A stretch of 64,000 bases of DNA from an uncultured Candidatus Saccharibacteria bacterium. Lineage in GTDB: Bacteria > Patescibacteriota > Minisyncoccia > UBA6257 > 2-01-FULL-56-20. The stretch covers positions 6,183 to 70,182 of the forward strand of contig CAZMPQ010000001.1 of NCBI GenBank assembly GCA_964568535.1. The letters are read 5' to 3'. Position numbers and translations under genes: made by a program. A model generated the notes under the pieces. The model had not been told where the DNA came from, did not search any database, and worked only from the letters and a program-made list of their open reading frames with translations. Positions 10,027 to 42,139 of this stretch are shown here, piece after piece (position 1 is the first letter of the stretch; every line of letters starts with the position of its first letter).

Positions 10027-10033
10027 CTATTGT

Positions 10034-11664: not shown

Positions 11665-11701
11665 ATGTTTTTGTATCGGGGGTGCACCCCCTGTATCTAT
11701 T

Positions 11702-12808
11702 CTACGCAAGATGCCCGAGTTTGCGAAGCTGCCGGGCAAGCGCGGCATGACTCAGCTTCTCCGCGTTCTCAGAACTATATACCTGCCCCGTAACAAGCGT
11801 TCCACCGGAGACATGATACTCGGCAAGTTGAGGCATGTGGTCCGCAAGGAATTTGTACGGTAACACGACAAAATGCCTGGGGAATTCCCATATCCGCCCC
11901 ATCTCATCCTGCGACACGAGCACTTCATGGAATTTCTCTCCCGGCCGCGCACCGATGCGCTCACGTTTCGTTCGCGCGTTTCCTAACTCCTTGATCATCA
12001 CTGTAGCAAGCGTTCCGACATCAACCGCGGCCATTTTCGGGATGAATATCTCGCCACCCCTTCCTTCCACGCCCATACGCAGCGCGAACGTCGCGAGGTC
12101 CTGAGGTATCTCCAAAAATCGCGTCATCCGTTCATCAGTTATCGTCACTTTGTTCCGACGCCTGATCTGTTCGCGGAACAGCGGCACAACGCTCCCGTGG
12201 CTTCCCGTGAGATTCCCGGAACGGACGCAGACGAATTTTGTCTCGGGCGAGTGCGCGTTCGCTGCGATGAACATCTTTTCGGCGATGGCTTTCGTATACC
12301 CATAATTATTAGACGGGTCGGCAGCTTTGTCGGATGAAATAAGAACCGCGCGGGGTACTCCGCTTGCCTTCGCTGCCTCGATCACATTCCGAGTCCCAAC
12401 CACGTTCGTCAGTACGAACTCCCAGATGTGCTGCTCGCCAACGGGCACATGTTTCAATGCCGCAAGGTGGAATACCACGTCCATCCCCCGCATGACCTCT
12501 GCTAAGCGTTCTCGGTCGCGTACGTCACCGATATAAAAGTGCAGGCGCGGATCCGCAAAATCACGCGCCATTTCCACTTGCGCGTTCTCGCCGCGGCTCA
12601 TAATGCGTACTTCGGCAGGGTCGTGCCTCAGGAGCTCTGCGGTCACTGCCTGGCCATACGAACCTGTGCCACCGGTGATGAGTATCCGCTTTCTCGCATA
12701 GAACGGCATCGGCTCTGCGGCTTTCGCTTTTGCGGCCCGGCGGCGTGACGGTGCGGCATGCTTCCGTTGGGCGATCACTCGGGGCCGTTTTGTAGCTTGT
12801 TTTTTCAT
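11702..12808 (-). CDS. polysaccharide biosynthesis protein, CapD/PseB/FlaA1-like UDP-GlcNAc 4,6-dehydratase
   Basis: Carries ILITGGTGSYG, LISSDKAADPSNNYGYTKAIAEK and RSGNLTGSHGSVVPLF. The first ~35 residues form a basic extension. Confidence 0.75.
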   Translation of the reverse strand: MKKQATKRPRVIAQRKHAAPSRRRAAKAKAAEPMPFYARKRILITGGTGSYGQAVTAELLRHDPAEVRIMSRGENAQVEMARDFADPRLHFYIGDVRDRERLAEVMRGMDVVFHLAALKHVPVGEQHIWEFVLTNVVGTRNVIEAAKASGVPRAVLISSDKAADPSNNYGYTKAIAEKMFIAANAHSPETKFVCVRSGNLTGSHGSVVPLFREQIRRRNKVTITDERMTRFLEIPQDLATFALRMGVEGRGGEIFIPKMAAVDVGTLATVMIKELGNARTKRERIGARPGEKFHEVLVSQDEMGRIWEFPRHFVVLPYKFLADHMPQLAEYHVSGGTLVTGQVYSSENAEKLSHAALARQLRKLGHLA

Positions 12809-16843: not shown

Positions 16844-18388
16844 TCAATCTTCTGCGCCGGCTCCACCGCACTCGTACGCCGCGAAACCGTATCCCGGCAT
16901 GGTGTTCGTGAGTTGCACGCCGAGGATGCGCGGCACGCCGCGAGTCAGGTGGTCAACAATGAGCGCGCACCCCTCGGCCTCTTGCGGGATCGCAACTTCC
17001 GAACCATTCTCCCCGCGCAGATACGTGCGGTCCAGGACCATCAACCGACGTTCAGGCAACACGACTAATGGAAGAACGTCTCCCGAGTAGTGCATCCGGC
17101 TATATTCTTCTGAAATCACCCACAAGTTCCCCGCGACGAACACTTCATCACTGGGATATTGCGCCAAGATCGGAGCGAACTCCTCGCGCGCCTCGGCGAT
17201 GCCCATCCCCCGCTCCAGATATGCTGGGAACGCGAATACGGTCTTGAGTGAGATGAGCGCGAAGAGGACGAGAAACGCGAGCGCTCCGTATCGCGCCCAG
17301 CGCGGAAGCGCGCCTTGCGTCAGATATCTGACGATGAACGCGAACACGATGAGCGCAAAAAGTGTCGCGTAGTAGGTCTTCGTGCCCATGAAGACCATCT
17401 TCACCAAGAGTCCCGCGAGCGCCGCGGCAAAAAGCAGAAAGAGCGGCAGCGAACGGATCTCGCCGCGGATGCGCACAAAGAGCCGGAACGCCGCGAACGC
17501 GAGGAATACGCCAACGACGGCGTAGGAAAGCGCATACGTGCTCTTCAAGAATGCAGCAGCGTTCCGCAGTTCTATCTTCGCGACCTCAAGGTCCGCGTGG
17601 CGCGATACGCCCTGGAGCGTTTCCGCAATGCTGTACGGCGAGAACTGCATGACGAGGAGATACGTCATGAGCGCGATGCCCGCTACCATCGCAAGCTTCG
17701 TGAGCGCTTCGCGCCACGGATACCGGAACGAGATGTAGAGTCCCACGAGAAGCGGCGAGAACATCGCGCCGAACGGATGGATCGCGGGCATGAGACCAAC
17801 TGCGACACCGCACGCCGCAAGCACCGTCCGCTCGCGCTTCGCGGCGAGTACGATAAGACAAACAATGAGCAGCAAGACGGCTTCCAGGTTCTCCGGGCGC
17901 GCCATATTATTCCATACGGAACGCAAGATGATACAGAGCGATGCCGTGATGAGCAGAACGCCGTATCCCGTGAGCGGCGTGCCGCCGGACGTCGCGACGC
18001 GGAAGAAGAACGTGCCCGCGAGAAGCGCGACTGCTGCGGCGAAAAAACCCATCACCGTCATCGCCTGCTGCGGCAGCGGCATGGCGAACGAGGGCGAGAT
18101 GAGCGTCCCCACGACGAGCTGCAGGAGCGGCGGGAAATAGAGATACCGGTCCGCGCCCGTCGGGTCGCCCCAGGACGTGCGCGTGTCGGTCAGTGGGTTC
18201 ATGAGCCCGTCGCCCATCGCCCAGTTTATCGCCGGAGGGATGAAGAACGACGCGTCGTGATAGCCGTTCAGCGAGTGCCCCGTCGCGCCGAACGCCGCGG
18301 TCATCACCGCAAGCGCGAGCACGATGCCCGCGAGGACGTTCGGCCAGATGTTCCGGGTAGGTTCCATATTAGAAATCATAATAGCCAC
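16844..18388 (-). CDS. polytopic membrane protein, putative GT-C-fold glycosyltransferase/polymerase; paralog of the 34957..36432 gene
   Basis: About 11 predicted TM segments followed by a soluble C-terminal domain. The C-terminus GVQLTNTMPGYGFAAYEC is shared with the paralog (GVQLAHAVPGYGFAVYDC). It is adjacent to a Dpm1-like GT2. Confidence 0.55.
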   Translation of the reverse strand: MAIMISNMEPTRNIWPNVLAGIVLALAVMTAAFGATGHSLNGYHDASFFIPPAINWAMGDGLMNPLTDTRTSWGDPTGADRYLYFPPLLQLVVGTLISPSFAMPLPQQAMTVMGFFAAAVALLAGTFFFRVATSGGTPLTGYGVLLITASLCIILRSVWNNMARPENLEAVLLLIVCLIVLAAKRERTVLAACGVAVGLMPAIHPFGAMFSPLLVGLYISFRYPWREALTKLAMVAGIALMTYLLVMQFSPYSIAETLQGVSRHADLEVAKIELRNAAAFLKSTYALSYAVVGVFLAFAAFRLFVRIRGEIRSLPLFLLFAAALAGLLVKMVFMGTKTYYATLFALIVFAFIVRYLTQGALPRWARYGALAFLVLFALISLKTVFAFPAYLERGMGIAEAREEFAPILAQYPSDEVFVAGNLWVISEEYSRMHYSGDVLPLVVLPERRLMVLDRTYLRGENGSEVAIPQEAEGCALIVDHLTRGVPRILGVQLTNTMPGYGFAAYECGGAGAED

Positions 18389-24319: not shown

Positions 24320-24397
24320 TTACTGGGACGTAGAACTCGGAGCTGGAGCCGAAGGAGTTGAGGTAACGTGGATGGGAGGTGGAAGGGGTGGTAGTCC
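24320..24397 (-). pseudogene. relic 3' end of a third small-partner gene (it encodes ...GLPPLPPPIHVTSTPSAPAPSSTSQ*)
   Basis: The minus-strand translation matches the C-terminal tail of the 26134..27117 protein (PPPPPPIHVTSTPPAPAQSSTSQ*). No corresponding N-terminal or central domain lies upstream of it. Confidence 0.55.
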
Positions 24398-24404
24398 CTC
24401 TTTA

Positions 24405-24752
24405 TTAGAATAAAGTCGGGTGAGCAAACATTTGAGAGGCACCATACATAAAAAAAGCTGTCGATACGAATACCCCCAAAGAAAAGAAGAGAAAAGAAAA
24501 GAAGAGAAAAGAAGAGCCCAATCTTCTTAGCTGTTCTCGAAATCGCTTTATGAAGAAGTTCACCAAGAAAAATGGTAAAGAAAAAACACTGATGATTTCC
24601 AAGATTAGTGAATAAATGTTTTCAAATGGAAAGAGCGCCTTTGGCAAGCTTGGGAATACATCTAACGAATAGGGAATCGTAAAAACTAACAATCCGACTA
24701 CTATGCCACCTAAAAGATTTCCGACATAAAACAAATTTAACTTTTTTTTCAT
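24405..24752 (-). CDS. hypothetical small Phe-rich membrane protein in a low-GC (~30%) patch
   Basis: A 115-aa ORF with three or four hydrophobic segments. It begins MKKKLNLFYVGNLLGGIVVGLL, similar to the partner-protein signal anchors. The local GC content is far below the window average. Confidence 0.35.
   Translation of the reverse strand: MKKKLNLFYVGNLLGGIVVGLLVFTIPYSLDVFPSLPKALFPFENIYSLILEIISVFSLPFFLVNFFIKRFREQLRRLGSSFLFFSFLFFSLGVFVSTAFFMYGASQMFAHPTLF
24481..24516. repeat. simple purine-rich repeat, roughly (GAAAAGAAGA)x3.5
   Basis: The sequence reads gaaaagaagagaaaagaaaagaagagaaaagaagag. Confidence 0.6.
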
Positions 24753-24781: not shown

Positions 24782-26137
24782 TCACCATTTGATTATCCCT
24801 TTAATTCTATAAGGGTCGAAGATGGGGTTTAGCTTAGAACTCCAAAGCATTTCAAAATCGCTTATATCTTGGGTACCCAAGTCAGTCTTGGGCGATACAA
24901 GACCGCAAGTGCTAGTGGAATTATCCATAATATTATTTCCTGTACTATGCGCCAGACCGAGTGCGTGCCCAAGCTCATGCGTAATAGTGCATTGTTTCAT
25001 TGAATTCGTATAAGGATCCATATAGTAAGTATTGAAAAGGATATGAGGTTGGTTTGGTGTGGTTGTAGGAACCCATAATCCTGCTTTTCCCATCCATTGA
25101 CCAACGGTCGAGCTGACGACGTCTACATATATATCCCAATCTGAACCAGATGTAGAGGTTGATTTCTTGAGATTCACATAGCTTGCAGTCGCGTCATTCC
25201 AAGTAATGATTGCGTTTAACATTTGCGCATCATATGGCGTAGAACTGCCTATTCTCATGATATATGGCGATGTGCTTGTATTGACGCCCGGCGGCGACCA
25301 CTCGGTATTGTCAGGACGTGACAAGAACGCCGTGTAATAATTGTCCGCATCAATATAGTCAGAAATCTTCGCACCTGTTCCTGAAGCGTTCTGCGTGGCA
25401 TGCCAGGGTCCGGCGTTCTCCGTAGAACTGTTGGCATCATCCAGCGGATACCACCCACCCCAGAAGTTCAATCTCATTGTGGAGGTCGGACTGCCAGTCT
25501 TCCAAGCACTGCTTGTGCTGTTGTTGTATATCGTGCTCGACGCCACCGTCACCGTCCCGCCGGTAATATACAGGCCGTAATCGTTATCGTGTATCGCTGA
25601 TTCCGTTACCGTCGTCGCGCCTCCCGTGCTGTATATCCCGTAGTCCGAAGCATAGGAGATGTCGGTATATCTCGTATTGAGCGTGCCGCCAGTAACGTAC
25701 ACGGTACTGCCTGCTGTGTTTCCGCCGTATCTCACGACGGTTCCTGCGAGAGTCGTGCTCGCGCCGGAGGTAATTTGAATATTTCCCCAATCCCCTGCGG
25801 CTCCCGTTGAAGTTCCATCTCCATTCAGATCCCCTCCCACGCTGTCGTCTTTGAAGGAGGTGAAATATACGAGGGTAGGGCTCAGTGCTCCTCCTTTCAC
25901 ATCAAGCTCTCCGTTCACGATGAGGGAGGTAGATGGTTTGAACTTGATGATGGTGCCGGGTTCAATGGTGATAGTCTTGCCTGCATTGATGGTGACGGTT
26001 GAGGAGACGATATATGGGCCTTCGGCTTTGGACCAGGTGGTGGAGGTTGCGATGGAGCCGGAGAGGGTGCTGGATGGCTTCGCCACGAGTGGTATGCATA
26101 CAAGCATACCACTTTGTTCTATGCGCTCACAGCTCAC
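24782..26137 (-). CDS. secreted parallel beta-helix plus metzincin zinc-metallopeptidase domain protein (a truncated paralog of the 1058-aa protein, lacking the LamG domains)
   Basis: It is about 85-95% identical to the C-terminal ~440 aa of the 27152..30328 gene product. It carries HELGHALGLAHS. An ATGA overlap couples it to the upstream partner gene. Confidence 0.6.
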   Translation of the reverse strand: MSCERIEQSGMLVCIPLVAKPSSTLSGSIATSTTWSKAEGPYIVSSTVTINAGKTITIEPGTIIKFKPSTSLIVNGELDVKGGALSPTLVYFTSFKDDSVGGDLNGDGTSTGAAGDWGNIQITSGASTTLAGTVVRYGGNTAGSTVYVTGGTLNTRYTDISYASDYGIYSTGGATTVTESAIHDNDYGLYITGGTVTVASSTIYNNSTSSAWKTGSPTSTMRLNFWGGWYPLDDANSSTENAGPWHATQNASGTGAKISDYIDADNYYTAFLSRPDNTEWSPPGVNTSTSPYIMRIGSSTPYDAQMLNAIITWNDATASYVNLKKSTSTSGSDWDIYVDVVSSTVGQWMGKAGLWVPTTTPNQPHILFNTYYMDPYTNSMKQCTITHELGHALGLAHSTGNNIMDNSTSTCGLVSPKTDLGTQDISDFEMLWSSKLNPIFDPYRIKGIIKW

Positions 26138-27117
26138 TGACTGGTTGATGACTGAGCAGGTGCTGGAGGCGTTGAGGTAACGTGGATAGGAGGCGGAGGG
26201 GGCGGAGTTGGTGGTTGGGGTGGAGGCGGATAAAATGGGGCGCAGTCGGGGTCTTGGGCGTCGGTGAGGTTGTCGAGGTCGTTGTCTTTGTTGTCACGAC
26301 AATTCACCTGATGGTCCTCTCGATAATATGGCCGGCAGTTGGGGTCGCCCTGATCGACAAGTCTATCTCCGTCATTATCTATGCCGTCGCGACAACTACT
26401 CCCTGAAGTTTCTGTTGTATCTTGTGGTAGTGGCGGTGGCGGCAATGTCTCTGGCACAGGACGGGGAGGTATGAGTTCAGCAAATTTATTGTGGACTGCC
26501 TGTTTCTCAGCTTGGGAGAGCGACTGGAATAAATTAGCGGCAGATTCGCCTGTTGTGCGTCCGTCAAATGGTATCTCATTCGGATACGCATTGAGTAGTT
26601 CGTATGTCCGCGCGTGTCGTAAAACGAGTTCTCTTAATTGCTCCTTACTCAAGTTGGCGTGCTCACTCACTACGGTCTTAGTCGCCGGATGAAAACCTAC
26701 AAAATACCATGGGCCAGCTTCATCGGGGAGATGAGTAGCTCCAAACAGATACGTTGTGCCGGGTGCAAGTTTATCCCCTTTTGTAGAATCCAAGCTCACA
26801 ACAATCCTATCCTCGGCAATACCTTTGATATTGTAAATAACCTCAACGTCATATTGTGTTCTTGATAAACCCAGTGAGTTATCGCTTCTTCCTGCTTCTG
26901 CAAGCACCTTGCCGGCAAATACATTTTGGTAATAACCAACCAACCTGCGGTTGTTATTGAAGTCAGTTGCCCACGTCGCGGCAATGCCGGATTCTCCCAT
27001 GTTCTTTACGCCTGAGTCAGTTGGTGTCTGAAAACCAACCTGCTGTACACCCCTCATCCCGAGATAGATTGCACCGAAAATCAAGATACTTCCAACGATA
27101 AATAGTCGTTTCTTCAT
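26134..27117 (-). CDS. secreted partner protein: signal anchor, a conserved domain of unknown function, two Cys-bracketed Asp-rich (TSP3-like calcium-binding) repeats, and a poly-proline C-terminal tail
   Basis: Starts MKKRLFIVGSILIFGAIYLG. Carries CRDGIDNDGDRLVDQGDPNC and CRDNKDNDLDNLTDAQDPDC, and ends PPPPQPPTPPPPPPIHVTSTPPAPAQSSTSQ. It is a paralog of the 38053..39054 gene. Confidence 0.6.
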   Translation of the reverse strand: MKKRLFIVGSILIFGAIYLGMRGVQQVGFQTPTDSGVKNMGESGIAATWATDFNNNRRLVGYYQNVFAGKVLAEAGRSDNSLGLSRTQYDVEVIYNIKGIAEDRIVVSLDSTKGDKLAPGTTYLFGATHLPDEAGPWYFVGFHPATKTVVSEHANLSKEQLRELVLRHARTYELLNAYPNEIPFDGRTTGESAANLFQSLSQAEKQAVHNKFAELIPPRPVPETLPPPPLPQDTTETSGSSCRDGIDNDGDRLVDQGDPNCRPYYREDHQVNCRDNKDNDLDNLTDAQDPDCAPFYPPPPQPPTPPPPPPIHVTSTPPAPAQSSTSQ

Positions 27118-27151
27118 GGTGATGGTTAATTATGTGATGACCCTATGGAAC

Positions 27152-30100
27152 TTATTGCCATTGAATGATGTTTTTCAATCGGTGCGGATCGAAAATAGGG
27201 TGCAGAGCGGGGGTCCAAAGCAATCGAAAATCGCTTATGTCTTGGGCACTTAGATTGGTCTGCGACGATCCTATCTGGCACGTCTGGTCCATTAAGTTGC
27301 CTTCCGGACTATGCGCCAATCCCAAAGCATGCCCGAGCTCGTGGGTGGTTACGCACTGCTTATTCATCTCGACGCCCATTCGCGCGGTATTGAAGTAAAT
27401 GTGAGCGATGCTAGTTGAAGACGGGATATAAAACCATGCCCAACCTCGAGGAACATAAAGCCCGGCCCAATCCAGTGTAGAACTCGTAATATCTGCCGCG
27501 GCCACATCCCACTGCGAGTTCGGGTACGAACTTGCCTTCTCTAAGTTAATATAACCTACGGTTGTATCATTCCAAGTATCAATGCCATCCTCCAATTGCG
27601 TCTGATATTGAGTAGAACTGCCCACCCGCATCACGTATGTTGATGTATTAGTGTAAACAGCTAACGGCGACCAAGTGTTAACATTAGGATGAGACAAATA
27701 CGCGGTGTAGTAATTGTCCGCGTCTATGTAATCGGATATTTTCGCTCCAGTCCCACTAGTATTCTGCGTAGCGTGCCACGGTCCAGCATTTTCCGTCGAG
27801 GTGTTCTTTTCGCTTGAGCCATCATAAGTATCGTCGAGCGGATACCATCCACCCCAGAAGTTCCATTTCATTGTGGAGGTCGGGCTGCCGGTTTTCCAAG
27901 CACTGCTTGTCGCGTTGTTATATATCGTGCTCGATGCCACCGTCACCGTCCCACCGGTAATATACAGACCGTAATCGTTGTCATGTATCGCTGATTCCGT
28001 TACCGTCGTTGCCCCTCCTGTGCTGTATATGCCGTAGTCCGAGGAGTAGGAGATATCGGTATATCGGGCGTTCAGCGTGCCTCCAGTCACGTAGATGGTA
28101 CTACTTGCAGTGCTTCCACCATAGCGGACAACGCTTCCTGCGATGGTAGTACTCGCCCCCGAGTTGATTTGGATATGCCCCCAATCCCCTGCCACCGGCG
28201 CTGTCGCTCCTCCGTCTCCATTCGTATCCCCACCCACACTGTCATCCTTGTATGACGTGAAATATACGAGCGTGGAGCTCAGTGCTCCTCCCTGCACATC
28301 AAGCTCTCCGTTCACGATGAGGGAGGTAGAGGGTTTGAACTTGATGATGGTGCCGGGTTCAATGGTGATAGTCTTGCCTGCATTGATGGTGACGGTTGAG
28401 GAGACGATATATGGGCCTTCGGCTTTGGACCAGGTGGTGCTGGTTGCGATGGTACCGGAGAGGAGGCCTCCGCAGCCGGAGGATTGGGCGCAGACGCGCC
28501 TGCCCTGACTACTGTTCCAGAGCTTCGTCACTTCGCCTGCGGTCAATGCGCGGTTCAGGACCACCACCTCGTCAATCATAGCAGAGATCTTTCCGTAACC
28601 GCCGCCTGAGGGGTAGCCGCCGTGGGCGCCGATGCCGGTGCCGGTGTCTACCGCCGAGGTGCCGTTCCCGGAGCCAGCGGCTGCCTCGGCCTTGAGGTCG
28701 TTCTGCACATAGAGGCGGAGGCTCGTGCCGTCGAAGGTGCAGGCGACGTGGTACCAGGTGGAAGTTGCGAGGCCGTTCCCGCCATTCGTCCAGGAGGCGG
28801 TCTCGTTCGCGGCGCCCCAGCGATTCCGTTGGCAATAAAGTGTCCTCGTGCTCCCGCCGGTATATTCAATGCCGTAGGCAACATCAGTGCCGCTGTCCAC
28901 GACGGAGACGATTTCCTGGTCTCCGGAGGCGATGCTGGCGAACTTGACCCAGGCCGCGAGAGACATGGCGCCCCCGGAGATACCGAGATTCTCCGACGCG
29001 TAAAGATACTTCGTCGTGTTGTCCGTCCCGAAGTCCGCGGCAGTGCCGAGCACGCCGGTTCCCGTTGCGGCGGGGCCGTAGTTCGTCAGGGTGTAGTGAT
29101 TGCCGCTCGCGTCGGCGGCGAAGTGATGGTCAGTATGGTAGAGCGCTCGGATCGCGCCGTCGGTGATCTGGAGATACGGCGATGGGTCCGTTTCCACCGT
29201 GAAATCAAATACATCCGCCGTCCCGAATTGCGTCCAGGAGGATGTGGCGAAAGTCACAGTGTCCTGCGCCCGCGCGCGCCAGTACCAGGACCCGGGCGTG
29301 ATAGAGGAAACGGTCGTTGACGCCTGTGCGCCAGGCGCGACTGGGGAGCTTGTCTGCGTCATTGGGCCGGCGAACGAGGTGCTCGTTGCGAGCTCCACCT
29401 GGACTATGAGCTGGTTCGTGGATGAGGAGTTCGGGATAGCCTTGAGCACGACGCTCGTCTCCGCCGTCGTTGCTCCTTCGGCGAGCGAGGTCGTACCGTT
29501 AGACTTGAACTGGAGGAGATCGCCGATGCTCGGCGGCGTGGACGACGTGCAGCCTACCGTAACGCAAATCGTATCCCCCGAACCGCTGTTCCAGAGCGCA
29601 TTGCGAGTAGAGGTGGAGATGCGGGTGTTCATGAAAAAGAGCTCATCGATATGGAAGTCACCGAGTGCAGCCGCGTTGCATACGGGATTCACGTTCGCCG
29701 AGCGGCCGTTCACGCAGATATCCGTCGTGAAGTTCGTCGTGTCACTGTCGCTCCCCGAGGTCACGATGGTGTTGTTCACATACCACTCTACCGAGCTTCC
29801 CGTACGGGTCAGGAGATGCCACTGCCAAGCGCCGACTGGCGGGCTGGAGGTGGTGTATTGCATCTCGCAGGGCGGCGTACCGTCCACGAACTCCAGGACG
29901 CCTGCGGCACAGGCCTGCGCACGGCTTATCTGTTCGATGCTGTCAGCTCCCGCACTACGGCGGCTGATCACGGCATCATCGTCCAGGGTCGCTTGTGCAT
30001 TAATCCAGAAACCGATGCTGAAATCACTGGAGAGGTCCATAGCGCTGGACGAGGCTCGGAACCAGCCGGTTCCCTGAGTGTCGCCGGCGTTGCCGAACCA

Positions 30101-30328
30101 ACCGGTCACGTAGGCGGTGCCGCTTGCGGTGAGGTTCCTACCGTTTCCTGAGGAATCGCTTGCATCCTCAAAGTGGTAGAGGGCGGTGACGGAGCTTGAG
30201 GGGATGTATACAGTGGCGGAGGCGGGGTGGGGGAAGAAAAACGCCGCCAAGATGGCGACGGTAGGGACGGCGAGGACAGCGGCGGACGTTATTCCACCGA
30301 ACGGAACGACCCTGGCGTTCCTGAACAT
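27152..30328 (-). CDS. very large secreted surface protein: signal peptide, two LamG_3 (concanavalin A-like) domains, an Ig/FN3-like region, a parallel beta-helix and a C-terminal metzincin (M10-like) catalytic domain
   Basis: Starts MFRNARVVP followed by a hydrophobic helix. The LamG_3 domain ends are ALYHFEDASDSSGNG...IDELFFMNTRISTSTRNALWNSG and ALYHTDHHFAADASGNH...IDEVVVLNRALTAGEVTKLWNSS. The beta-helix repeats include TGGATTVTESAIHDNDYGLYITGG. The zinc motif is THELGHALGLAHS, and the conserved C-terminus is FDPHRLKNIIQWQ. Confidence 0.75.
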   Translation of the reverse strand: MFRNARVVPFGGITSAAVLAVPTVAILAAFFFPHPASATVYIPSSSVTALYHFEDASDSSGNGRNLTASGTAYVTGWFGNAGDTQGTGWFRASSSAMDLSSDFSIGFWINAQATLDDDAVISRRSAGADSIEQISRAQACAAGVLEFVDGTPPCEMQYTTSSPPVGAWQWHLLTRTGSSVEWYVNNTIVTSGSDSDTTNFTTDICVNGRSANVNPVCNAAALGDFHIDELFFMNTRISTSTRNALWNSGSGDTICVTVGCTSSTPPSIGDLLQFKSNGTTSLAEGATTAETSVVLKAIPNSSSTNQLIVQVELATSTSFAGPMTQTSSPVAPGAQASTTVSSITPGSWYWRARAQDTVTFATSSWTQFGTADVFDFTVETDPSPYLQITDGAIRALYHTDHHFAADASGNHYTLTNYGPAATGTGVLGTAADFGTDNTTKYLYASENLGISGGAMSLAAWVKFASIASGDQEIVSVVDSGTDVAYGIEYTGGSTRTLYCQRNRWGAANETASWTNGGNGLATSTWYHVACTFDGTSLRLYVQNDLKAEAAAGSGNGTSAVDTGTGIGAHGGYPSGGGYGKISAMIDEVVVLNRALTAGEVTKLWNSSQGRRVCAQSSGCGGLLSGTIATSTTWSKAEGPYIVSSTVTINAGKTITIEPGTIIKFKPSTSLIVNGELDVQGGALSSTLVYFTSYKDDSVGGDTNGDGGATAPVAGDWGHIQINSGASTTIAGSVVRYGGSTASSTIYVTGGTLNARYTDISYSSDYGIYSTGGATTVTESAIHDNDYGLYITGGTVTVASSTIYNNATSSAWKTGSPTSTMKWNFWGGWYPLDDTYDGSSEKNTSTENAGPWHATQNTSGTGAKISDYIDADNYYTAYLSHPNVNTWSPLAVYTNTSTYVMRVGSSTQYQTQLEDGIDTWNDTTVGYINLEKASSYPNSQWDVAAADITSSTLDWAGLYVPRGWAWFYIPSSTSIAHIYFNTARMGVEMNKQCVTTHELGHALGLAHSPEGNLMDQTCQIGSSQTNLSAQDISDFRLLWTPALHPIFDPHRLKNIIQWQ

Positions 30329-30349
30329 GATTCGATTGTATCTCCAAAG

Positions 30350-30358: not shown

Positions 30359-30380
30359 GAGGCAAGGAGGTTATGCACAG

Positions 30381-31655: not shown

Positions 31656-31667
31656 GGAATGCCAGGC

Positions 31668-34956: not shown

Positions 34957-36432
34957 TCACTTCACACCGGGGGCGCGGCAATCATATACCGCAAAACCAT
35001 ATCCGGGAACGGCGTGCGCAAGTTGGACGCCAAAGAGCTTTGGCGGACGCGACACATAGAACTCGCGCTCCAACGCGCAGCCGCTATAGTGCACCGAAAG
35101 ATCCGGCGATTCCCATTCTTCCGTAATGAGCAGATATTGCGAAGCGCCCGGATTCGCCGGAATTTCCGCAACGAACATCCGGTCGTAGGACTCGGAAAGC
35201 ATCCACATCCGCGAACCGCCAGGCATAAAGGGAGCGCCGGTATGTTTTGCGAGGACATCGGCGAACGCCGCGCGCGCCGCGGGGAGCGTGACGCCGTCAC
35301 GCAGGAAAAGCGGGAAGAGCGCTGCGGGAACGAGCGACAGCGCAGCAAGCATCCCGACGAACACAACAAGCGGATACATTACGCGCTTATCCCTCCGGAT
35401 GCCGGAAGCGGGGTGCAGCAGCGCGGCGAACGCGACGACCACGAATGGCGTGAGGTAGTAGAATCTGGCGTTCGCCGCGGCAAATGCGCCGTAGGCCGCG
35501 AACACGAGCGCTGAGAGCACGACGAGCGCGGGCGAGCCGATAGCGCCGGCACGCATCTTGCGCACGAACAGGCGCACGGCGAAGAATGCGAATATTCCGG
35601 CGAATACCACGAGCGGCGGGCGGCTGAAAAGCGCCGCGGCGATGCCCGCAGGCGTGAGGCGCGACACCATCGCCGAGCCATGGCGCAGCGTGCCGTTTAT
35701 CATCTCGCCGATGGGAAATGGGCTCAATTGCATCACCGCGACGAATGCGACGGCCGCAGTTGCCGCGATAATGGCGAGATACGTTGCGCTTGTGCGCATG
35801 TCGTACCGTATACCGAAGAACATCGCTCCAAGCGCGGCGAACGCGACGGGGATGACCACGTGCGTAGCTACGGTAAACCCGATGAGCGCACCAAGCGCGA
35901 GCGCGAGACGCCGCGGCTCACGAAAAGCGACCGCAGCGACGAGGCCGAGCGTCACAAAAAGGCGGGCGAGTATCTCTGGTCGCGTCCCGAACGTCCACGA
36001 AGCGCGGAAAACGAGGGCAATGCCAACGCAGATAAGAAGCGCGGTTAGCCAATCAAGCCGCGTTCCATCGCTTGACGCGATGCGCATGAGCGACCATGCA
36101 GAAAGCGCGAGCGCTGCGGCCGTGATGAGCGCCATGCCTTTCATCGCCTGGAGCGGCGCAGGTGTTGCAGCGTCCGGCGAGACGAACCAACTAACGACGA
36201 TAGGAAAGAGCGGCGGATACGACAGGAACGGACCGTTCCCGCCGATAAGTTTCGAGTCCAGCCATCGAATGGGGTTTTGCAGATCGCCCGAACGGGCACG
36301 TTCTATGCCCGGCGCCATGAACCACGCGCCGTCGTTCATGCCTGCAGGCGGATAGCCGAACGCGCCGAAGAGCAGCGCAAGCCCTGCGAAAAACGCCGTT
36401 ACGCCGATGACCGTTCCCCGTTGCGCCGTCAT
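34957..36432 (-). CDS. polytopic membrane protein, putative GT-C-fold glycosyltransferase; paralog of the 16844..18388 gene
   Basis: Many TM helices. The C-terminus GVQLAHAVPGYGFAVYDC is shared with the paralog. It is adjacent to a Dpm1-like GT2. Confidence 0.55.
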   Translation of the reverse strand: MTAQRGTVIGVTAFFAGLALLFGAFGYPPAGMNDGAWFMAPGIERARSGDLQNPIRWLDSKLIGGNGPFLSYPPLFPIVVSWFVSPDAATPAPLQAMKGMALITAAALALSAWSLMRIASSDGTRLDWLTALLICVGIALVFRASWTFGTRPEILARLFVTLGLVAAVAFREPRRLALALGALIGFTVATHVVIPVAFAALGAMFFGIRYDMRTSATYLAIIAATAAVAFVAVMQLSPFPIGEMINGTLRHGSAMVSRLTPAGIAAALFSRPPLVVFAGIFAFFAVRLFVRKMRAGAIGSPALVVLSALVFAAYGAFAAANARFYYLTPFVVVAFAALLHPASGIRRDKRVMYPLVVFVGMLAALSLVPAALFPLFLRDGVTLPAARAAFADVLAKHTGAPFMPGGSRMWMLSESYDRMFVAEIPANPGASQYLLITEEWESPDLSVHYSGCALEREFYVSRPPKLFGVQLAHAVPGYGFAVYDCRAPGVK

Positions 36433-38052: not shown

Positions 38053-39054
38053 TTACTGCCCGGTTGAGGTCGGAGCCGGTGCCGGAGGCGTTGAAGTGGG
38101 CGCAGTAGGAGATGGCGCGAAGTTCTCCGGTGGGAGTGGAGCGGAAGGCGGAGGAGGTGGGGGTTGTGGCGGATAGAATTGGGCGCAGTCGGGGTCGGCG
38201 GAGTCGGTGAAACCGTCGCGATCGTTGTCGATGTTGTCTCCACAAAGGGCTGGGAGGTCTTCTCGGAGAGCCCCACCACAGTCGGGATCTGCTTTATCAA
38301 TTAGCCCATCTTTGTCGTTATCTTCTTTATCACCGCAACGACTCCAAGAATTCTCAGGTATACTATCGCGGCTTGTAGAAATGGGAGGCAAAATCTCCGG
38401 CACCGGGCGTGGAGGTATCAACTCCTGGAATTTGTCGTACACTGCTCGCTTGTTCGCTTCAAAAAGGGATTGGAAAGAGTTTATCGTCCGGCCCTTTTGA
38501 ATATCAATATCTCTCAATATCTCGTTCGGATATGCGTTGAGTAATTCATACGTCCTTGAGTGTTTTTTTACAATGTCGGTCAGTTCTTCGTTTGTAAGAC
38601 GCGAACTCTGGCTTATGGACACATGGAAGGCGTTCGGGGAACCAACGTAATACCACGGTTCTGTTTCGGCCCAGTGACGAGCGGCAAGGATATACGTGTT
38701 GCCCGGGACAAGTCGAGCGCCCTCAAATGCTTCTATATCAACTTGTATCCTACCACTCGCAGTGCCTTTGATGTTGTAAAGAACTTCTACTTCGTACTGA
38801 TAATGTGCAAGCTGACTACCTCCAGGGAGTGTTTGAGGATTGTTTCCTCTCTCTGCGAGGACTTTCGCCGCAAAGACCTCTTGGGCGTAGCCCACTAAGA
38901 CGCGCGGATTGTCGTAGTTGATTGCGTATGAAGCTGCGGGGCTAGAATTTTCTTCGTTTTGCCCATTATCAAGGGGTAATTCAGAGTTCACGGCGACATA
39001 GAAACCAACGATAACTGCTACACTGCTTACGATGATGGCTAGTTGCCTTTTCAT
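38053..39054 (-). CDS. secreted partner protein (paralog of the 26134..27117 gene): signal anchor, a conserved domain, two Cys-bracketed Asp-rich repeats and a poly-proline tail
   Basis: Starts MKRQLAIIVSSVAVIVGFYVA. Carries RTYELLNAYPNEI, CGDKEDNDKDGLIDKADPDC and CGDNIDNDRDGFTDSADPDC, and ends PPQPPPPPPSAPLPP...TPPAPAPTSTGQ. Confidence 0.6.
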   Translation of the reverse strand: MKRQLAIIVSSVAVIVGFYVAVNSELPLDNGQNEENSSPAASYAINYDNPRVLVGYAQEVFAAKVLAERGNNPQTLPGGSQLAHYQYEVEVLYNIKGTASGRIQVDIEAFEGARLVPGNTYILAARHWAETEPWYYVGSPNAFHVSISQSSRLTNEELTDIVKKHSRTYELLNAYPNEILRDIDIQKGRTINSFQSLFEANKRAVYDKFQELIPPRPVPEILPPISTSRDSIPENSWSRCGDKEDNDKDGLIDKADPDCGGALREDLPALCGDNIDNDRDGFTDSADPDCAQFYPPQPPPPPPSAPLPPENFAPSPTAPTSTPPAPAPTSTGQ

Positions 39055-39079: not shown

Positions 39080-42000
39080 TTACCATTGAATGACGTGCTT
39101 CATCCGGTGTGGGTCAAAGAAGTAAGACGGGCTCCAGAGAAGATTGAAATTGAATAAATCTAAAATGCCTAATGTTGTTTGGGGCTCAAGAATTCCTGGG
39201 AAGTAATCGCATGAATGACGCGCCATAATACTATCCCCGTATTCAGTGTGCGATAAACCTAACGCATGACCAATCTCATGGGTTGCAACACATTGTTGCG
39301 AGTCTGAGTAAGAATTCATTCCATTTGTGTTGAATATAATGTGAGCGGTACTCGTAACAAATGGATACCACAATCCCGCCCACGATGAGGTGTCTACTGT
39401 GATATCAGCCACGTATATATCCCAGGTATCACTCGATGACGCACTTGCATTGACGACCATCACATAGCCCGATGACGAAGCGTTCCATGTGCTCATACCA
39501 TCAATAAGTTCTGATTGGTATTGCGTAGAGCTTCCCACTCTCATTTTCAGAGTACTAGAATTCACTCCAGGCGGAGACCATGTTGACTCACTAGGACTCG
39601 CAATAAATGCACTCATGTATGGACTAATGTCAATGTAATCCGATACGTCATCACCTGCTCCTGATGGGTTTTGACCAGAATGGTAAGGTCCTGCGTTGTC
39701 GGTAGATGTAGAGATATCATCAAGCGGAAACCATCCTCCCCAGAAGTTGTTGGTCATCGTAGATGTCGGCCCCGATGCATCGTGGAGCGCACCGTAGCCT
39801 GCAGTCGCATTGCTGAAGACGGTACTTGAAGACATCGTCACATTGTTGCCGCTCGTAACTCTTACGCCGTTGTAGTTGTCGTGTATTGAGGCGTATATGA
39901 TAGTCGTTGTTCCGGCCGTAAGGTACAAACCGTGCGTTTCTGCATAGGAGACATCGCTGTTTCTGATGTTCAGCACTCCCCCGTTGTTGTAGATATTTGC
40001 ATCACTTGCCGCATCTCCTCCGCCATATCTGACAACGCTTCCCACAAGCGTACTGCTCGCACCTGTATTGAACTTGATATGTCCCCAGTCACCTACCGCC
40101 GGCTGCGTCGTACTGTTGTTTGTGTCCCCTCCTACCGCATCATCGTGATACGACGTGAAATATACCAAGGTTGAGCTCAGGGCTCCTCCCTTCACATCAA
40201 GCTCTCCGTTCACGATGAGGGAGGTATTGGGTTTGAACTTGATGACGGTGCCGGACGCTACGGTGATTTTCACGCCGGAGGCGATGGTAGCGGTACTTGT
40301 GACGATGTATGGGGAGAGGTTGTGGGTCCAGGTGGTGCTTGCGGTGATAGTGCCGGAGAGGAGGTTCGCCGTGCCGCACCCTGCCGTCGTACACACTTCC
40401 GCACCGCTTCCGCTGTTCCAGAGCGCATTCCGAGTACTCGTGGATATCCGCGACGTGGACAGGAATAGTTCGTCAATATGCCAGCTGTGCTTGTAGTCGG
40501 CGTTCAAGCCGTTCACCTGGAGATCGGTGGAGTAGTTCGTGGTTGCGCTGTCGGTGAACGAATGTTGGCGCACGTTGTCCACGTAATAATCAACGATCGA
40601 GCCGCTGCGAAGCACTGTTACCCAGTACCACGTGGATGTCGCGAGAGAATAGGAGAAGTTCCCCTTGCAAGTCCCGTTGTGCCTGAACTCAAAGTTGTTT
40701 CCCGCGCACTGGGCGCCATACATCACCGCGTCATTGCTTGTTCCGCCCGTCGTCCTGCCGACAAGGGAAGTGTCGTTCAGGGCTTCCATCGGCTTCATCC
40801 AGAACCCAATAGAGAAGTCCCCCGAAAGGTCCATAGCGGATGAGGACACTGTCCAATATCCGGAACCCTGCGTAATGCCTGCGGTTGATAGCTTGCCCTC
40901 GGTAGATCCTGTCCCCCACGACGTGAGGTGGCGCGCGTTCCCCGAGGCGTCGGACGTGTCCTCAAAATGATACAGGCCGACAACGTTTGAAACCTCTACC
41001 CGCGGATTGGGAACGGTCTCCACCACGACGTCCACCACATTGTCTGTGCCGAATTGTCGCCAAGAGGATGTGGCGTTCGTCGCGGTATCCAGCGCTCTCC
41101 CTCGCCAATACCAGAATCCATCGGGGATGGCCGAGATGGTTGTTGTGGCATACGAGCTCGGAGTCACTGCGGTGCTTGTGCCGTGAAGTGCGTTCGTGAA
41201 CGACGTGCTCGTAGAAAGCTCAACTTGAAGCATGAGGTTGTTTGACGATGAGGAGTTCAAAAAAGCTTTGAAGAATACCGTGCTCTCCGCCGTGGTCGCG
41301 CCCTCGCTCAATGGGGTCGTGCCATCAGCTTTGAACTGCGTTGTTGAGGAGATGACGGGGATAGAGGAGGTCGCACATCCTAGTGTAGCGCATATCTCCG
41401 CCCCACTACCACTTGCCCAGAGCGCATCTTTCGTGCTCGTCGTGATGCGAGCGTTCATGAAAAAGAGTTCGTCCATAAGATAGGCGTGGTTGTACGATGA
41501 GCAACCGCCACCCGAGAGACCAAGGGCGCCGATACAGAGGTCGCTGCTGATATTTCCCGTCTCGCTGTCGGTGAACGGGAATACTACGCTGTTGTTCACA
41601 TAATAATCGGTGTTCGTTCCCGTTCGGGCGATGAGGAACCAGTACCAGGTGTTCGTCGAGAGCGTGTATGCCGAAGTATGGCACGTGTTGTTGTGCTTGA
41701 ACTCAACGTGGCTCCCCGCGCATGTATTCCCATAATACACGCCTTCGCGGGAAGAACCGGATATCCGATCAATGAACGGCGTGTCGTTCAGAGATACCTG
41801 TGGGTATATCCAGAATCCGATAGTGAAGTCGCCCGACAGATCCATAACTGATGACGATGCCCGGAGGAATGCGCCGCTCGCGAAGTTTGCCGCATTGGAC
41901 AGCGTACCAGTTGTGAACGTGGTCCCGGAAGCGTTTACGAGGTCGTGTCGGTTCGCCGATGACGTAACGGAGTCTGTCAGGTTCTCCATGTGGTAGAGGG

Positions 42001-42139
42001 CGGTGATGTTGGGGACGTACACGGCGGCGGAGGCGAAGCTTGGAAACAAAAACGCCACCAGAGTGGCGGCGAGGAACGCGGTGGAGAGAGCAACAAGCGT
42101 TGTTCTTTGTGACGGAACGACCCTGGCGTTCCTGAACAT
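39080..42139 (-). CDS. very large secreted surface protein with the same LamG, LamG, Ig/FN3-like, beta-helix and metzincin architecture (paralog of the 27152..30328 gene)
   Basis: I chose the start at the conserved MFRNARVVP; the ORF extends to 42199 across the poly-G tract. Carries ALYHMENLTDSVTSSANRHDL...MDELFFMNARITTSTKDALWASG, ATHEIGHALGLSH, DSIMARH (the Met-turn) and FDPHRMKHVIQW. Confidence 0.75.
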   Translation of the reverse strand: MFRNARVVPSQRTTLVALSTAFLAATLVAFLFPSFASAAVYVPNITALYHMENLTDSVTSSANRHDLVNASGTTFTTGTLSNAANFASGAFLRASSSVMDLSGDFTIGFWIYPQVSLNDTPFIDRISGSSREGVYYGNTCAGSHVEFKHNNTCHTSAYTLSTNTWYWFLIARTGTNTDYYVNNSVVFPFTDSETGNISSDLCIGALGLSGGGCSSYNHAYLMDELFFMNARITTSTKDALWASGSGAEICATLGCATSSIPVISSTTQFKADGTTPLSEGATTAESTVFFKAFLNSSSSNNLMLQVELSTSTSFTNALHGTSTAVTPSSYATTTISAIPDGFWYWRGRALDTATNATSSWRQFGTDNVVDVVVETVPNPRVEVSNVVGLYHFEDTSDASGNARHLTSWGTGSTEGKLSTAGITQGSGYWTVSSSAMDLSGDFSIGFWMKPMEALNDTSLVGRTTGGTSNDAVMYGAQCAGNNFEFRHNGTCKGNFSYSLATSTWYWVTVLRSGSIVDYYVDNVRQHSFTDSATTNYSTDLQVNGLNADYKHSWHIDELFLSTSRISTSTRNALWNSGSGAEVCTTAGCGTANLLSGTITASTTWTHNLSPYIVTSTATIASGVKITVASGTVIKFKPNTSLIVNGELDVKGGALSSTLVYFTSYHDDAVGGDTNNSTTQPAVGDWGHIKFNTGASSTLVGSVVRYGGGDAASDANIYNNGGVLNIRNSDVSYAETHGLYLTAGTTTIIYASIHDNYNGVRVTSGNNVTMSSSTVFSNATAGYGALHDASGPTSTMTNNFWGGWFPLDDISTSTDNAGPYHSGQNPSGAGDDVSDYIDISPYMSAFIASPSESTWSPPGVNSSTLKMRVGSSTQYQSELIDGMSTWNASSSGYVMVVNASASSSDTWDIYVADITVDTSSWAGLWYPFVTSTAHIIFNTNGMNSYSDSQQCVATHEIGHALGLSHTEYGDSIMARHSCDYFPGILEPQTTLGILDLFNFNLLWSPSYFFDPHRMKHVIQW

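Follow-up and report, generated by a model that had tools for sequence, protein, structure and literature searches.

A predicted secreted LamG, beta-helix and matrixin-type protein of a Patescibacteria bacterium and its co-varying membrane-anchored partner

The 1058-aa protein encoded in the window, the 64,000-nucleotide stretch of DNA analysed here, is probably a secreted protease that is directed to a surface and has a cognate binder anchored in the membrane, which would be an inhibitor or immunity protein or a dock. The cassette encoding both is duplicated. New in this locus are the adjoining gene for a transmembrane (TM)-anchored partner, the co-variation of protease and partner, and a truncated copy of the protease gene without a signal peptide.

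The open reading frame at positions 27152 to 30328 of the minus strand starts with ATG, and its coordinates were exact. Comparison of the gene with its paralogs and its orthologue yielded dN/dS values of 0.17 to 0.29. At the sequence level the open reading frame is under purifying selection, so it is a real gene and not a chance open reading frame. From the N to the C terminus, the protein is composed of a signal peptide, a LamG domain, an Ig-like sandwich, a second LamG domain, a right-handed beta-helix with its cap, and a metzincin domain. The five domain assignments of the earlier note hold in Pfam, AF2 models and Foldseek. All motifs quoted there were found in the protein: ALYHFEDASDSSGNG at aa 49-63, IDEVVVLNRALTAGE at aa 585-599, STGGATTVTESAIHDNDYGLYITGG at aa 769-793, HELGHALGLAHS at aa 996-1007, and the C-terminal tail FDPHRLKNIIQWQ at aa 1046-1058. 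The modules are located as follows.

30215..30328, minus strand: predicted signal peptide or possibly uncleaved signal anchor (aa 1-38; MFRNARVVP, hydrophobic core, PASA/TV)
29555..30208, minus strand: LamG or concanavalin-A-like domain 1 (aa 41-258; Pfam PF13385, Foldseek)
29165..29554, minus strand: Ig/FN3-like beta-sandwich (aa 259-388; AF2 model)
28484..29164, minus strand: LamG domain 2 (aa 389-615; best PF13385 stretch aa 437-600)
27887..28483, minus strand: right-handed parallel beta-helix (aa 616-814; contains the DDxxGGDTNGDG loop)
27683..27886, minus strand: C-terminal cap/linker of the beta-helix (aa 815-882; NFWGGW...GP...SDYID)
27152..27682, minus strand: compact matrixin-like zinc endopeptidase domain (aa 883-1058 plus stop codon)
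27290..27343, minus strand: zinc site and Met-turn (H996-E997-xx-H1000-xx-G1003-xx-H1006-S1007 ... M1013)

The signal peptide was predicted heuristically. The sole hydrophobic segment of the protein comprises aa 7-34 (Kyte-Doolittle windows above 1.6), is directly followed by ASA/T and agrees with the previously proposed MFRNARVVP start plus hydrophobic helix. The segment of aa 1-38 is conserved in the paralog and the orthologues and appears as one helix with low pLDDT in the AF2 model. Neither an LPXTG motif nor a C-terminal TM segment was present in a scan of the sequence. The 12 Cys residues group into six sequence-local pairs, Ser plus Thr account for 24% of the residues compared to a window median of 10%, and there are 15 N-x-S/T sequons. 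The Patescibacteria (CPR) bacterium would export the protein via Sec, as an extracellular protein rich in disulfides and in Ser/Thr. The confidence of the full-length AF2 model was moderate (pLDDT 68, pTM 0.45), and the inter-domain geometry is not defined by this model.

The C-terminal 175 residues are, by the modelled fold and the aligned active-site residues, a compact matrixin-type zinc endopeptidase, and this domain may be expected to be enzymatically active. The residue after the third zinc-binding His is Ser in matrixins, Glu in astacins, Pro in serralysins and Asp in adamalysins; here it is S1007, directly behind H1006. The metzincin clan MA(M) is defined by the zinc motif HExxHxxG/NxxH/D (PMC12237041), which is spelled H996-E-L-G-H1000-A-L-G1003-L-A-H1006 in this protein. 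Invariant among 33 diverse members were H996, E997, G999, H1000, G1003, L1004, H1006 and M1013; in an alignment of 116 sequences, H996, E997, H1000 and G1003 were invariant, and H1006 and S1007 were at least 90% conserved. The Met-turn at M1013 and a closing C-terminal helix (aa 1028-1038 in the AF2 models) are likewise those of a metzincin. The M10 profile PF00413 scored 30.3 bits against a gathering threshold of 24, spanning only profile positions 103-155 of 159, and 28.8 bits on paralog 2. The profile of the protease family matched MMP-1 with E=3.7e-8 and reached MMP-1 residues 27-147. With the model of the isolated domain (pLDDT 82, pTM 0.82), 34 of 34 Foldseek matches at E<1e-3 were catalytic domains of MMPs or karilysin, among them the complexes of PotA with karilysin (8b2q) and with MMP-12, which makes MMPs the closest fold and bears out the C-terminal metzincin of the earlier note.

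Vertebrate MMPs and karilysin (M10A) have in common with this protease the HExxHxxGxxH motif followed by Ser and a topology of five-stranded sheet, active-site helix and C-terminal helix, although TM-scores are only 0.5 to 0.6. The Met-turn is located 7 residues past the third His compared to 8 in MMP-1. The S-loop region is about 14 residues shorter than that of MMP-1, and in neither the 33- nor the 116-member alignment did the stretch from strand 3 to strand 5 contain conserved His/Asp ligands for a structural Zn or Ca. In contrast to animal MMPs, there is no pro-domain with the PRCGxPD cysteine switch, and a PRCG motif does not occur anywhere in the 1058 aa; the beta-helix cap is positioned immediately N-terminal of the catalytic domain. 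The domain sits behind the LamG, Ig and beta-helix modules, whereas the MMP catalytic domain precedes the hemopexin domain. It possesses in addition a subfamily-specific Cys992–Cys1017 pair and the FDPHRxK tail. This tail, FDPHRLKNIIQWQ, had been described as strictly conserved, which applies to a Patescibacteria subfamily but not to the wider protease family.

The M43 profile PF05572 yielded 24.1 bits against a threshold of 23, covering only positions 34-94 of 152, the zinc-motif region, and remained below threshold for the orthologue (20.3 bits) and paralog 2 (22.4 bits). Unlike pappalysins (PAPP-A, M43B), the protein follows matrixins in the residue behind the third His and in the short spacing to the Met-turn, and the overall architecture and biology of PAPP-A are unrelated. 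Snapalysins (M7), the minimal metzincins of Streptomyces, use Asp as third zinc ligand in HExxHxxGxxD (PMC12237041). This family was rejected because the third ligand here is His1006, invariant in the 33-member alignment; snapalysins are also single-domain proteins, unlike the 1058-aa multidomain protein.

The N-terminal two thirds, the LamG–Ig-like–LamG–beta-helix arm, would serve as binding and spacer region and position the protein at a surface rich in glycans or proteins, judging from the roles of these folds elsewhere. PF13385, which had been expected twice, matched the whole protein with E=7e-19 in two stretches. Both LamG domains belong to this family by HMM match and modelled jelly-roll fold and would be putative ligand-binding modules. 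Foldseek matches of the whole model were LamG/ConA-type lectin modules, including a trans-sialidase lectin domain, neurexin LNS, laminin LG, BoNT Hc and PilC. AF2 confidence over LamG domain 1 was patchy, and LamG domain 2 matched PDB entry 4qvs (E=3e-4), the LamG module of an S-layer-domain protein. The Ig-like module (aa 265-380) was modelled as a beta-sandwich of 7-8 strands with pLDDT 86-95, as the earlier Ig/FN3-like assignment suggested; it gave no PDB sequence match with a 12-sequence profile and no Pfam match, and also occurs in relatives without a beta-helix.

The module at aa 616-814 has the fold of a beta-helix. A PF13229-like HMM did not match this module alone at E≤0.01, scored 25.3 bits against 25.9 on the short paralog, and matched 3 of 15 homologous modules with a best E of 2.9e-8. 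The cap/linker, of low to moderate pLDDT, is conserved along with the beta-helix across the family. The fold had been correctly predicted, but the motif presumed to be repeated occurs once per protein, the second copy being that of the paralog at 24782..26137. Could the beta-helix be the main catalytic module, a polysaccharide lyase, hydrolase or epimerase, making the whole protein primarily glycan degrading? This is extremely improbable. The module is short (about 190 aa), and relatives carry it one to four times in tandem, as a structural repeat would be; the residues that do not vary (K-F, DD, GDTNGDG and W) suggest a Ca-binding loop and do not resemble the active site of a known lyase or hydrolase; no CAZyme sequence match appeared in Pfam or PDB; and the non-enzymatic beta-helices of pertactin, Vag8, PfbA and NosD score equally well.

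The genes next to the 1058-aa gene and a second cassette in the window are the following.

26134..27117, minus strand: partner gene 1 (NCBIfam NF033662, E=1e-12)
24782..26137, minus strand: short, orphan-like paralog (beta-helix, cap and protease only; without signal peptide)
24323..24391, minus strand: remnant of a second partner gene (final 23 codons, ending in PPIHVTSTPSAPAPSSTSQ and the stop codon; 87% identical by tblastn to the C terminus of partner 1)
39080..42139, minus strand: full-length paralog 2 (1019 aa from Met21; same five modules; equals P0002)
38053..39054, minus strand: partner gene 2 (47% identical to partner 1; directly downstream of paralog 2)

The conserved, co-evolving partner and the paralogous cassettes, absent from the earlier note, are the most informative feature of the locus. 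The TM-anchored partner has about 330 aa, ranging from 230 to 360 aa across loci. Partner 1 consists of an N-terminal TM anchor, a globular domain of about 190 aa, two acidic double-disulfide repeats that match the teneurin C-rich domain, and a Pro-rich tail. Pfam, NCBIfam and further homology searches linked the globular domain to no known protease inhibitor or anchor. Each of the eight intact cassettes examined (two in the window, L001, two in L002, L003, L004/L005) had a partner homologue directly downstream of its protease gene, and in one of them the protease gene is devoid of LamG modules. The ninth cassette is that of the short paralog, with its partner reduced to the 23-codon remnant. 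The L005 partner retained the globular domain without the repeats and the Pro tail, which argues for a conserved interaction that is independent of the stalk.

Protease identity tracked partner identity (Mantel r=0.80, p≈4e-4) in a sample limited to seven cassettes, which came from four or five genomes. Beta-helix identity did not follow that of the partner (r=0.02), and for beta-helix and protease r was 0.21. In the positional orthologues W_big2 and P0015, the Ig, LamG2 and beta-helix modules were 63-71% identical, compared to 36% for the protease and 37% for the partner. Beta-helix identities group by genome, and the protease/partner types cut across genomes. Protease and partner are co-inherited and diversify jointly, independently of the targeting arm. 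Part of this co-variation could be physical adjacency combined with a recombination breakpoint at the junction of cap and protease.

Paralog 2 is 45% identical over its full length, with Pfam matches to LamG_3 and Peptidase_M10. The short paralog is 70% identical to aa 623-1057, with 90% for the beta-helix, 87% for the cap and 54% for the protease. Its nucleotide identity drops from 94% to 45-66% along the alignment, at the 3' border of the cap; its catalytic motif is intact, and its dN/dS is 0.17. The partner equivalent to the remnant is intact in L002, where a 382-aa orphan is followed by a 360-aa partner. By analogy, the truncated, signal-peptide-less copy resembles the orphan modules of polymorphic toxin loci.

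Polymorphic toxins are secreted multidomain proteins with a C-terminal enzymatic domain, a conserved downstream gene and truncated downstream copies (PMC4436062), and this locus has that layout, including downstream copies that lack the N-terminal trafficking modules, share a homologous upstream handle and have their own immunity-type gene. As in CdiA/CdiI, Rhs and MafB, one C-terminal family is found on several N-terminal arms and behind a handle in truncated copies. The protein may then be a contact-dependent effector with a protease directed against the envelope of host or competitor cells, the partner would be the immunity protein, and orphans would recombine via the conserved beta-helix and thereby switch the protease/immunity type. 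The contrast between the 90% and 54% identities, the intact partner of the L002 orphan, the co-variation of protease and partner, and the grouping of beta-helices by genome agree with this, but it is nevertheless unlikely. The same N-terminal region on unrelated toxin domains was not seen; all C termini are homologous matrixins, 32-60% identical, and are alleles of a single family. The partner is large and membrane anchored, unlike typical small immunity proteins, no dedicated delivery system of the CdiB, T6SS or T7SS type is linked, and the partner of the window orphan has decayed.

The gene is embedded in a 45-kb glycan biosynthesis island, a context already noted before, with GT2, a GT10-like enzyme, a weak GT87 match, Wzy, a DegT aminotransferase, many epimerases/dehydratases, methyltransferases and a sulfatase. 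The protein may alternatively be a structural surface-layer or adhesin glycoprotein, glycosylated via this island and held by a Pro-rich, Ca-binding partner, with the protease used for self-processing or maturation only. The Ser/Thr content and sequons, the resemblance to 4qvs, the self-processing of Mep72 (PMC4334185), and a partner with TM anchor, acidic Ca-binding-type repeats and a poly-Pro tail like a wall-spanning segment fit this explanation, which is quite improbable all the same. Pfam and NCBIfam gave no match to SLH or another domain for S-layer anchoring or lattice formation, leaving 4qvs as the sole link to the surface-layer idea of the earlier note, and the L005 partner dispenses with repeats and Pro tail. 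The full catalytic site is strictly conserved in more than 100 diverse relatives despite very different N-terminal arms, which argues for proteolysis as the core function.

The relatives of the protease domain comprise 1105 cluster representatives and 951 matches at E≤1e-5, annotated as matrixin or M43; versions of about 160 aa already carry the annotation "matrixin family metalloprotease". Stand-alone homologues of small size are common among free-living Bacillales, Actinomycetes and archaea. This distribution, together with a signal peptide and carbohydrate-binding-type modules as in many secreted degradative enzymes, would suit a generic nutrient-scavenging exoprotease of an auxotrophic CPR cell, anchored to detritus or biofilm matrix and functionally unrelated to the partner. 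Such a role is very unlikely, since it leaves the invariable partner adjacency, the co-variation and the cassette duplication with orphan copies unexplained.

Among the 100 top-ranked relatives inspected, the protease domain followed several different N-terminal arms, and beta-helix–matrixin fusions were the majority. A CPR clade of MMP homologues has been published (PMC12587646), and lectin-type modules are combined with a metzincin in PAPP-A (PMC9489782, PMC9780223) and Mep72 (PMC4334185). On sequence grounds, the earlier claim that the fusion belongs to no known family is too strong. Precisely this order of five modules turned up in just three genomes or contigs, all of them apparently from Patescibacteria. 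Among GTDB representatives, a Candidatus Saccharibacteria MAG alone has an orthologue, with gene order conserved, and RNase Y of the window falls into a cluster of at least 90% identity with a MAG labelled Candidatus Parcubacteria, in line with the small-genome, possibly episymbiotic bacterium suggested previously.

Two characterized systems pair a metzincin with the product of an adjacent gene. Mep72 of Pseudomonas aeruginosa is a secreted metzincin with tandem carbohydrate-binding domains, and the product of the adjacent gene, BamI, binds it and relieves its toxicity (PMC4334185). The combination of metzincin, carbohydrate-binding-type modules and adjoining cognate-binder gene is the same. 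In Mep72, however, which belongs to another metzincin family and is exported by type II secretion, the protease precedes the other domains. BamI and the partner are not homologous, and neither duplicated cassettes nor orphan copies were reported for that system. In Tannerella forsythia, each gene for a KLIKK peptidase, including the matrixin karilysin, adjoins a gene for a specific membrane-anchored inhibitor, a potempin (PMC9890683). Potempin genes are upstream and encode outer-membrane lipoproteins of 98-132 residues, whereas the partner is encoded downstream, has 230-360 aa and an N-terminal TM anchor; homology between them was not detectable.

In the favoured explanation, a surface-targeted protease with a cognate binder, the C-terminal domain would be a catalytically competent endopeptidase, functionally paired with the membrane-anchored protein encoded directly downstream. 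Most economically, the partner ectodomain would bind the protease domain specifically and act either as cognate inhibitor or immunity factor that shields the producer's own envelope, or as a dock retaining the protease on the cell. The duplicated cassette and the near-identical beta-helix "handle" in the truncated copy mean that recombination could swap protease/partner types.

The protease and its partner form a candidate system, open to experimental test, for attack or adhesion at the cell surface in which the cognate binder is built in. A further-reaching and rather doubtful possibility is that Patescibacteria hold an undescribed Sec-dependent polymorphic "protease–immunity" system composed of targeted mini-matrixins, co-evolving membrane-anchored inhibitors and recombining silent orphan cassettes. 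If so, lectin/beta-helix-targeted mini-matrixin effectors would hit the envelopes of hosts or competitors, and silent orphan protease/partner cassettes would recombine via the homogenised beta-helix handle and switch specificity.

The open reading frame of the target was confirmed at the site given in the earlier note (27152..30328, minus strand); it begins with ATG, encodes 1058 aa and contains all motifs quoted there. The target and the related genes in the window are as follows:

27152..30328, minus strand: target, with predicted signal peptide, LamG, Ig-like, LamG, beta-helix, cap and metzincin regions
26134..27117, minus strand: partner gene 1, about 330 aa, directly 3' of the target
39080..42139, minus strand: paralog 2, with the same five modules as the target
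38053..39054, minus strand: partner gene 2, 3' of paralog 2, product 47% identical to that of partner gene 1
24782..26137, minus strand: short paralog, with beta-helix, cap and protease

A chance ORF was ruled out by the existing homologues and by a dN/dS of 0.17 to 0.29 against the paralogs and the orthologue, which indicates purifying selection and therefore a real gene. The sole hydrophobic segment of the protein is located at the N terminus (aa 7-34, followed by ASA|T), and a sequence scan found neither an LPXTG motif nor a C-terminal transmembrane segment. Along the sequence, the 12 cysteines are grouped in six local pairs, and Ser plus Thr account for 24% of the residues versus a median of 10% among the proteins of the window. 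Taken together, these features fit a predicted Sec-exported extracellular protein. A promoter and terminator scan of 24000-31800 gave counts at chance level.

The five domains that had been called from the sequence were all correctly assigned. Pfam matched Laminin_G_3 twice (E=7e-19) and Peptidase_M10 at aa 985-1035 (30.3 bits, gathering threshold 24), with a marginal match to Peptidase_M43 (24.1 versus 23 bits). For the Ig-like and the beta-helix modules, profile searches gave no PDB match, and fold comparison was used instead. In the full-length AlphaFold2 model, which had an overall pLDDT of 68, an Ig-like sandwich at aa 265-380 (pLDDT 86-95) and the protease region (pLDDT 82-95) were well defined, and the beta-helix was of moderate confidence. 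The Foldseek matches of the whole model were LamG-type lectin modules, namely, the trans-sialidase lectin domain, neurexin LNS, laminin LG, BoNT Hc and PilC pilin. The target thus contains lectin-type, Ig-like and beta-helix folds. Two unlikely rival explanations are that the target is a structural S-layer protein or adhesin, and that the beta-helix is a glycan-cleaving module.

Since the LamG matches drowned out the protease signal, a separate model of aa 878-1058 was built on a 116-sequence alignment (pLDDT 82, pTM 0.82). All 34 Foldseek matches of this model at E<1e-3 were catalytic domains of MMPs (MMP-1, -2, -3, -7, -9, -10, -11, -12, -13 and -16) or karilysin, with adamalysin, archaemetzincin and astacin ranking only beneath them. 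This rules out a chance occurrence of HExxH in a fold other than that of a protease, and the metzincin assignment of the earlier note survived. With a 33-sequence family profile, the catalytic domain of MMP-1 was matched over residues 27-147 (chain length, 157 residues; E=3.7e-8). Residues H996, E997, G999, H1000, G1003, L1004, H1006 and M1013 did not vary across these 33 diverse relatives; in the 116-sequence alignment, H996, E997, H1000 and G1003 were invariant and H1006 and S1007 were at least 90% conserved. A pseudo-protease was ruled out by the invariant catalytic residues. The Met-turn follows 7 residues past the third His, and a Ser, which is the matrixin signature at this position, occupies the site right after it. 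The domain therefore folds like a matrixin-type protease, and its active site is intact.

The pro-domain and the PRCG cysteine switch of animal MMPs are both absent from the target. The S-loop, which bears structural Zn and Ca ligands in MMPs, is about 14 residues shorter in the target family, and the family alignment contained no conserved structural ligands in this shortened region. On these grounds, the domain is a compact "mini-matrixin." It is comparable in size to the snapalysins but differs from them in its third zinc ligand, which is His in the target and not in snapalysins (PMC12237041). A pair of cysteines at aa 992 and 1017 (QC...TC, nt ~27278-27355) flanks the zinc motif and the Met-turn. 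All three window paralogs have this pair, as does part of the Patescibacteria subfamily, but most members of the wider family lack it; judged from the alignment, it is thus probably a subfamily-specific disulfide.

A full-length word-index search had returned only four proteins, the target, its paralog and two partial matches. The orphan family that this number implied was an artefact of low-complexity crowding, and exhaustive profile and profile-seeded searches revealed a large family. The exhaustive profile search covered 1.84 billion cluster representatives, of which 1105 were related to the protease domain at E<=1e-3; with stricter cutoffs of 1e-10 and 1e-30, the numbers were 161 and 15. 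In 100 of these 1105 relatives, mapped by a local phmmer domain survey, the commonest architecture was one to four copies of a ~190-aa beta-helix module followed by the cap and the C-terminal protease; proteases with LamG and/or Ig modules and without the beta-helix were also seen. The full LamG-Ig-LamG-beta-helix-protease layout was rare, with two copies in the window, two in the Saccharibacteria MAG CAZWBU01 (the gene of locus L001 and P0015) and one, P0010, on locus L003. Stand-alone versions of about 160 aa were numerous and carry the NCBI names "matrixin family metalloprotease" (Niallia, Psychrobacillus, Paenactinomyces and Methanoperedens) or "M43 family zinc metalloprotease" (Parcubacteria and the Patescibacteria group). 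MMP homologues that form a CPR clade have also been noted (PMC12587646), and with these names and this clade in place the catalytic domain is of a known kind. The claim that the lectin/beta-helix/metzincin fusion represents an unknown family was therefore overstated: beta-helix fusions are common among uncharacterised metagenomic proteins, and the five-module protein is a lineage-restricted variant. No characterised member of the beta-helix-mini-matrixin family (>1000 cluster representatives) was found among the named relatives or in the literature searched.

A homologue of the partner gene was located 3' of every protease gene examined. The product of partner gene 1 consists of an N-terminal TM anchor, a globular domain of about 190 aa, two acidic double-disulfide repeats and a poly-Pro/Ser-Thr tail. 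The globular domain had no family match in Pfam, NCBIfam or PDB with single-sequence or profile searches; only the acidic Cys-rich repeats were recognised (NCBIfam NF033662, E=1e-12), and these resemble the teneurin C-rich domain. The repeat CxDxxDNDxDxxxDxxDPxC (aa 236-296 of partner 1, also in partner 2) matched that domain in PDB 7plp with a profile E value of 2e-4, an unusual similarity between a bacterial and a metazoan motif. Outside the window, the partner of the L001 protease gene was 56% identical, and two partners on L002 and one on L003 were likewise positioned 3' of protease genes. A metagenome scan by protease patterns yielded no loci, and a scan by partner yielded L004 to L006. 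In L004 and L005, the partner is 230 aa long, with only the TM segment and the globular domain, and the protease gene contains several beta-helix modules and no LamG. This indicates that the conserved core is a beta-helix-cap-mini-matrixin protein plus a TM-anchored globular partner, the genes of which are strictly adjacent.

Comparison of the cassettes, each a protease gene with its partner, revealed different histories of their parts. The positional orthologues paralog 2 and P0015 were 71% identical in the Ig module, 68% in the second LamG and 63% in the beta-helix, but only 36% in the protease domain and 37% in the partners. Between paralog 2 and the L001 gene the pattern was reversed, with 30% in the second LamG and 59% in the protease. 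These values indicate that protease domain and partner share a history distinct from that of the rest of the large gene. Mantel tests across seven cassettes demonstrated that the partner co-varies with the protease domain (r=0.80, p≈4e-4); the values were r=0.02 (p=0.44) for beta-helix versus partner and r=0.21 (p=0.16) for beta-helix versus protease. Beta-helix identity groups by genome, which suggests concerted evolution of this module, and the protease and partner types cross genomes. The GC3 within the target declines stepwise from 0.73-0.80 in LamG and Ig over 0.62 in the beta-helix to 0.53-0.54 in cap and protease, and the partner genes have the lowest values of the window (0.445 and 0.485; most window genes, 0.62-0.78). 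This compositional step fits a separate origin or history of the protease-partner unit.

The short paralog lacks a signal peptide. Its identity to the target is 90% for the beta-helix and 87% for the cap, compared with 54% for the protease, and in the nucleotide alignment the identity drops along its length from 94% to 45-66%. The catalytic motif of this copy is intact, and the dN/dS amounts to 0.17. Of the second partner gene 3' of it, only the last 23 codons remain (24323-24391). The expected site of the intact gene, between the short paralog and this remnant, contains an ORF of about 115 codons (~24400..24750, minus strand) for a small, very hydrophobic protein (MKKKLNLFYVGNLLGGIVVGLLVF...). 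On L002, an orphan equivalent to the short paralog is followed by an intact partner. This Saccharibacteria MAG locus encodes a 382-aa beta-helix-protease that begins mid-helix (9161..10309) and a 388-aa Ig-LamG-Ig fragment that begins mid-Ig (11394..12560), both lacking a signal peptide and interleaved with partner genes like an array of partial cassettes. The cassettes were thus duplicated with mosaic identity. The layout of the short paralog matches the orphan modules published for polymorphic toxin loci (PMC4436062), and a rival explanation would assign the entire locus to this class; there, however, the C-terminal domains are unrelated toxins, whereas here every one is an allele of a single family.

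The window is a cell-envelope glycan island, in agreement with the setting proposed earlier. Its genes code for GT2 enzymes, a GT10-like enzyme, Wzy, a DegT aminotransferase, many NDP-sugar epimerases/dehydratases, C- and FkbM-type methyltransferases and a sulfatase. Two paralogs of about 500 aa with 29% identity (16844..18388 and 34957..36432, both minus strand) are possibly large polytopic glycosyltransferases; the first had a weak GT87 match (19.5 bits, threshold 25) and the second no Pfam match. Housekeeping functions (RNase Y, RNase J and aminoacyl-tRNA synthetases) are encoded on the flanks of the island. A 1167-aa IleRS-like class-I synthetase (58609..62112, minus strand; tRNA-synt_1, Anticodon_1 and DUF5915) has its catalytic domain interrupted by a complete His_Phos_1 (histidine-phosphatase) domain at aa 509-668. 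An orthologue of the target occurred in one GTDB species representative only, a Candidatus Saccharibacteria MAG, which shares the gene order Wzy, epimerases, large protein and partner. The RNase Y of the window shares at least 90% identity with its counterpart in a MAG labelled Candidatus Parcubacteria, and both matches place the genome in the Patescibacteria.

The N-terminal arm of the target may bring the enzyme to surfaces rich in glycans or proteins, be it the envelope of the cell itself or of a host. The protease domain would be catalytically active, and the partner ectodomain would bind it specifically. A role of the partner as cognate inhibitor or immunity protein, or in docking, is favoured. 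Precedents for a metzincin gene adjoining the gene of its binder are Mep72/BamI, in which the protease also carries carbohydrate-binding modules (PMC4334185), and karilysin and other KLIKK peptidases, encoded beside membrane-anchored potempins (PMC9890683). An unlikely rival explanation is that the protease serves generic nutrient scavenging.

The new finding is that protease and partner form a co-evolving unit, of which a CPR genome carries orphan-like copies. The locus constitutes a two-gene module in an envelope-glycan island: an MMP-like protease predicted to be surface-targeted, and a membrane-anchored partner that co-evolves with it. The module is duplicated and apparently recombining. 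Genetic work on CPR epibionts has so far pointed to type IV pili and to unusual envelope proteins that have glycan-binding domains (PMC10633639), and the locus bears on host recognition, attachment and exploitation by CPR/Patescibacteria epibionts. Should the partner act as cognate inhibitor or immunity protein, it would found a new family of inhibitors of matrixin-type proteases, and toxin-immunity logic would reach the extracellular proteases of ultra-small bacteria. If it is an anchor, the system would represent a new mode of enzyme display on a monoderm-like CPR envelope.
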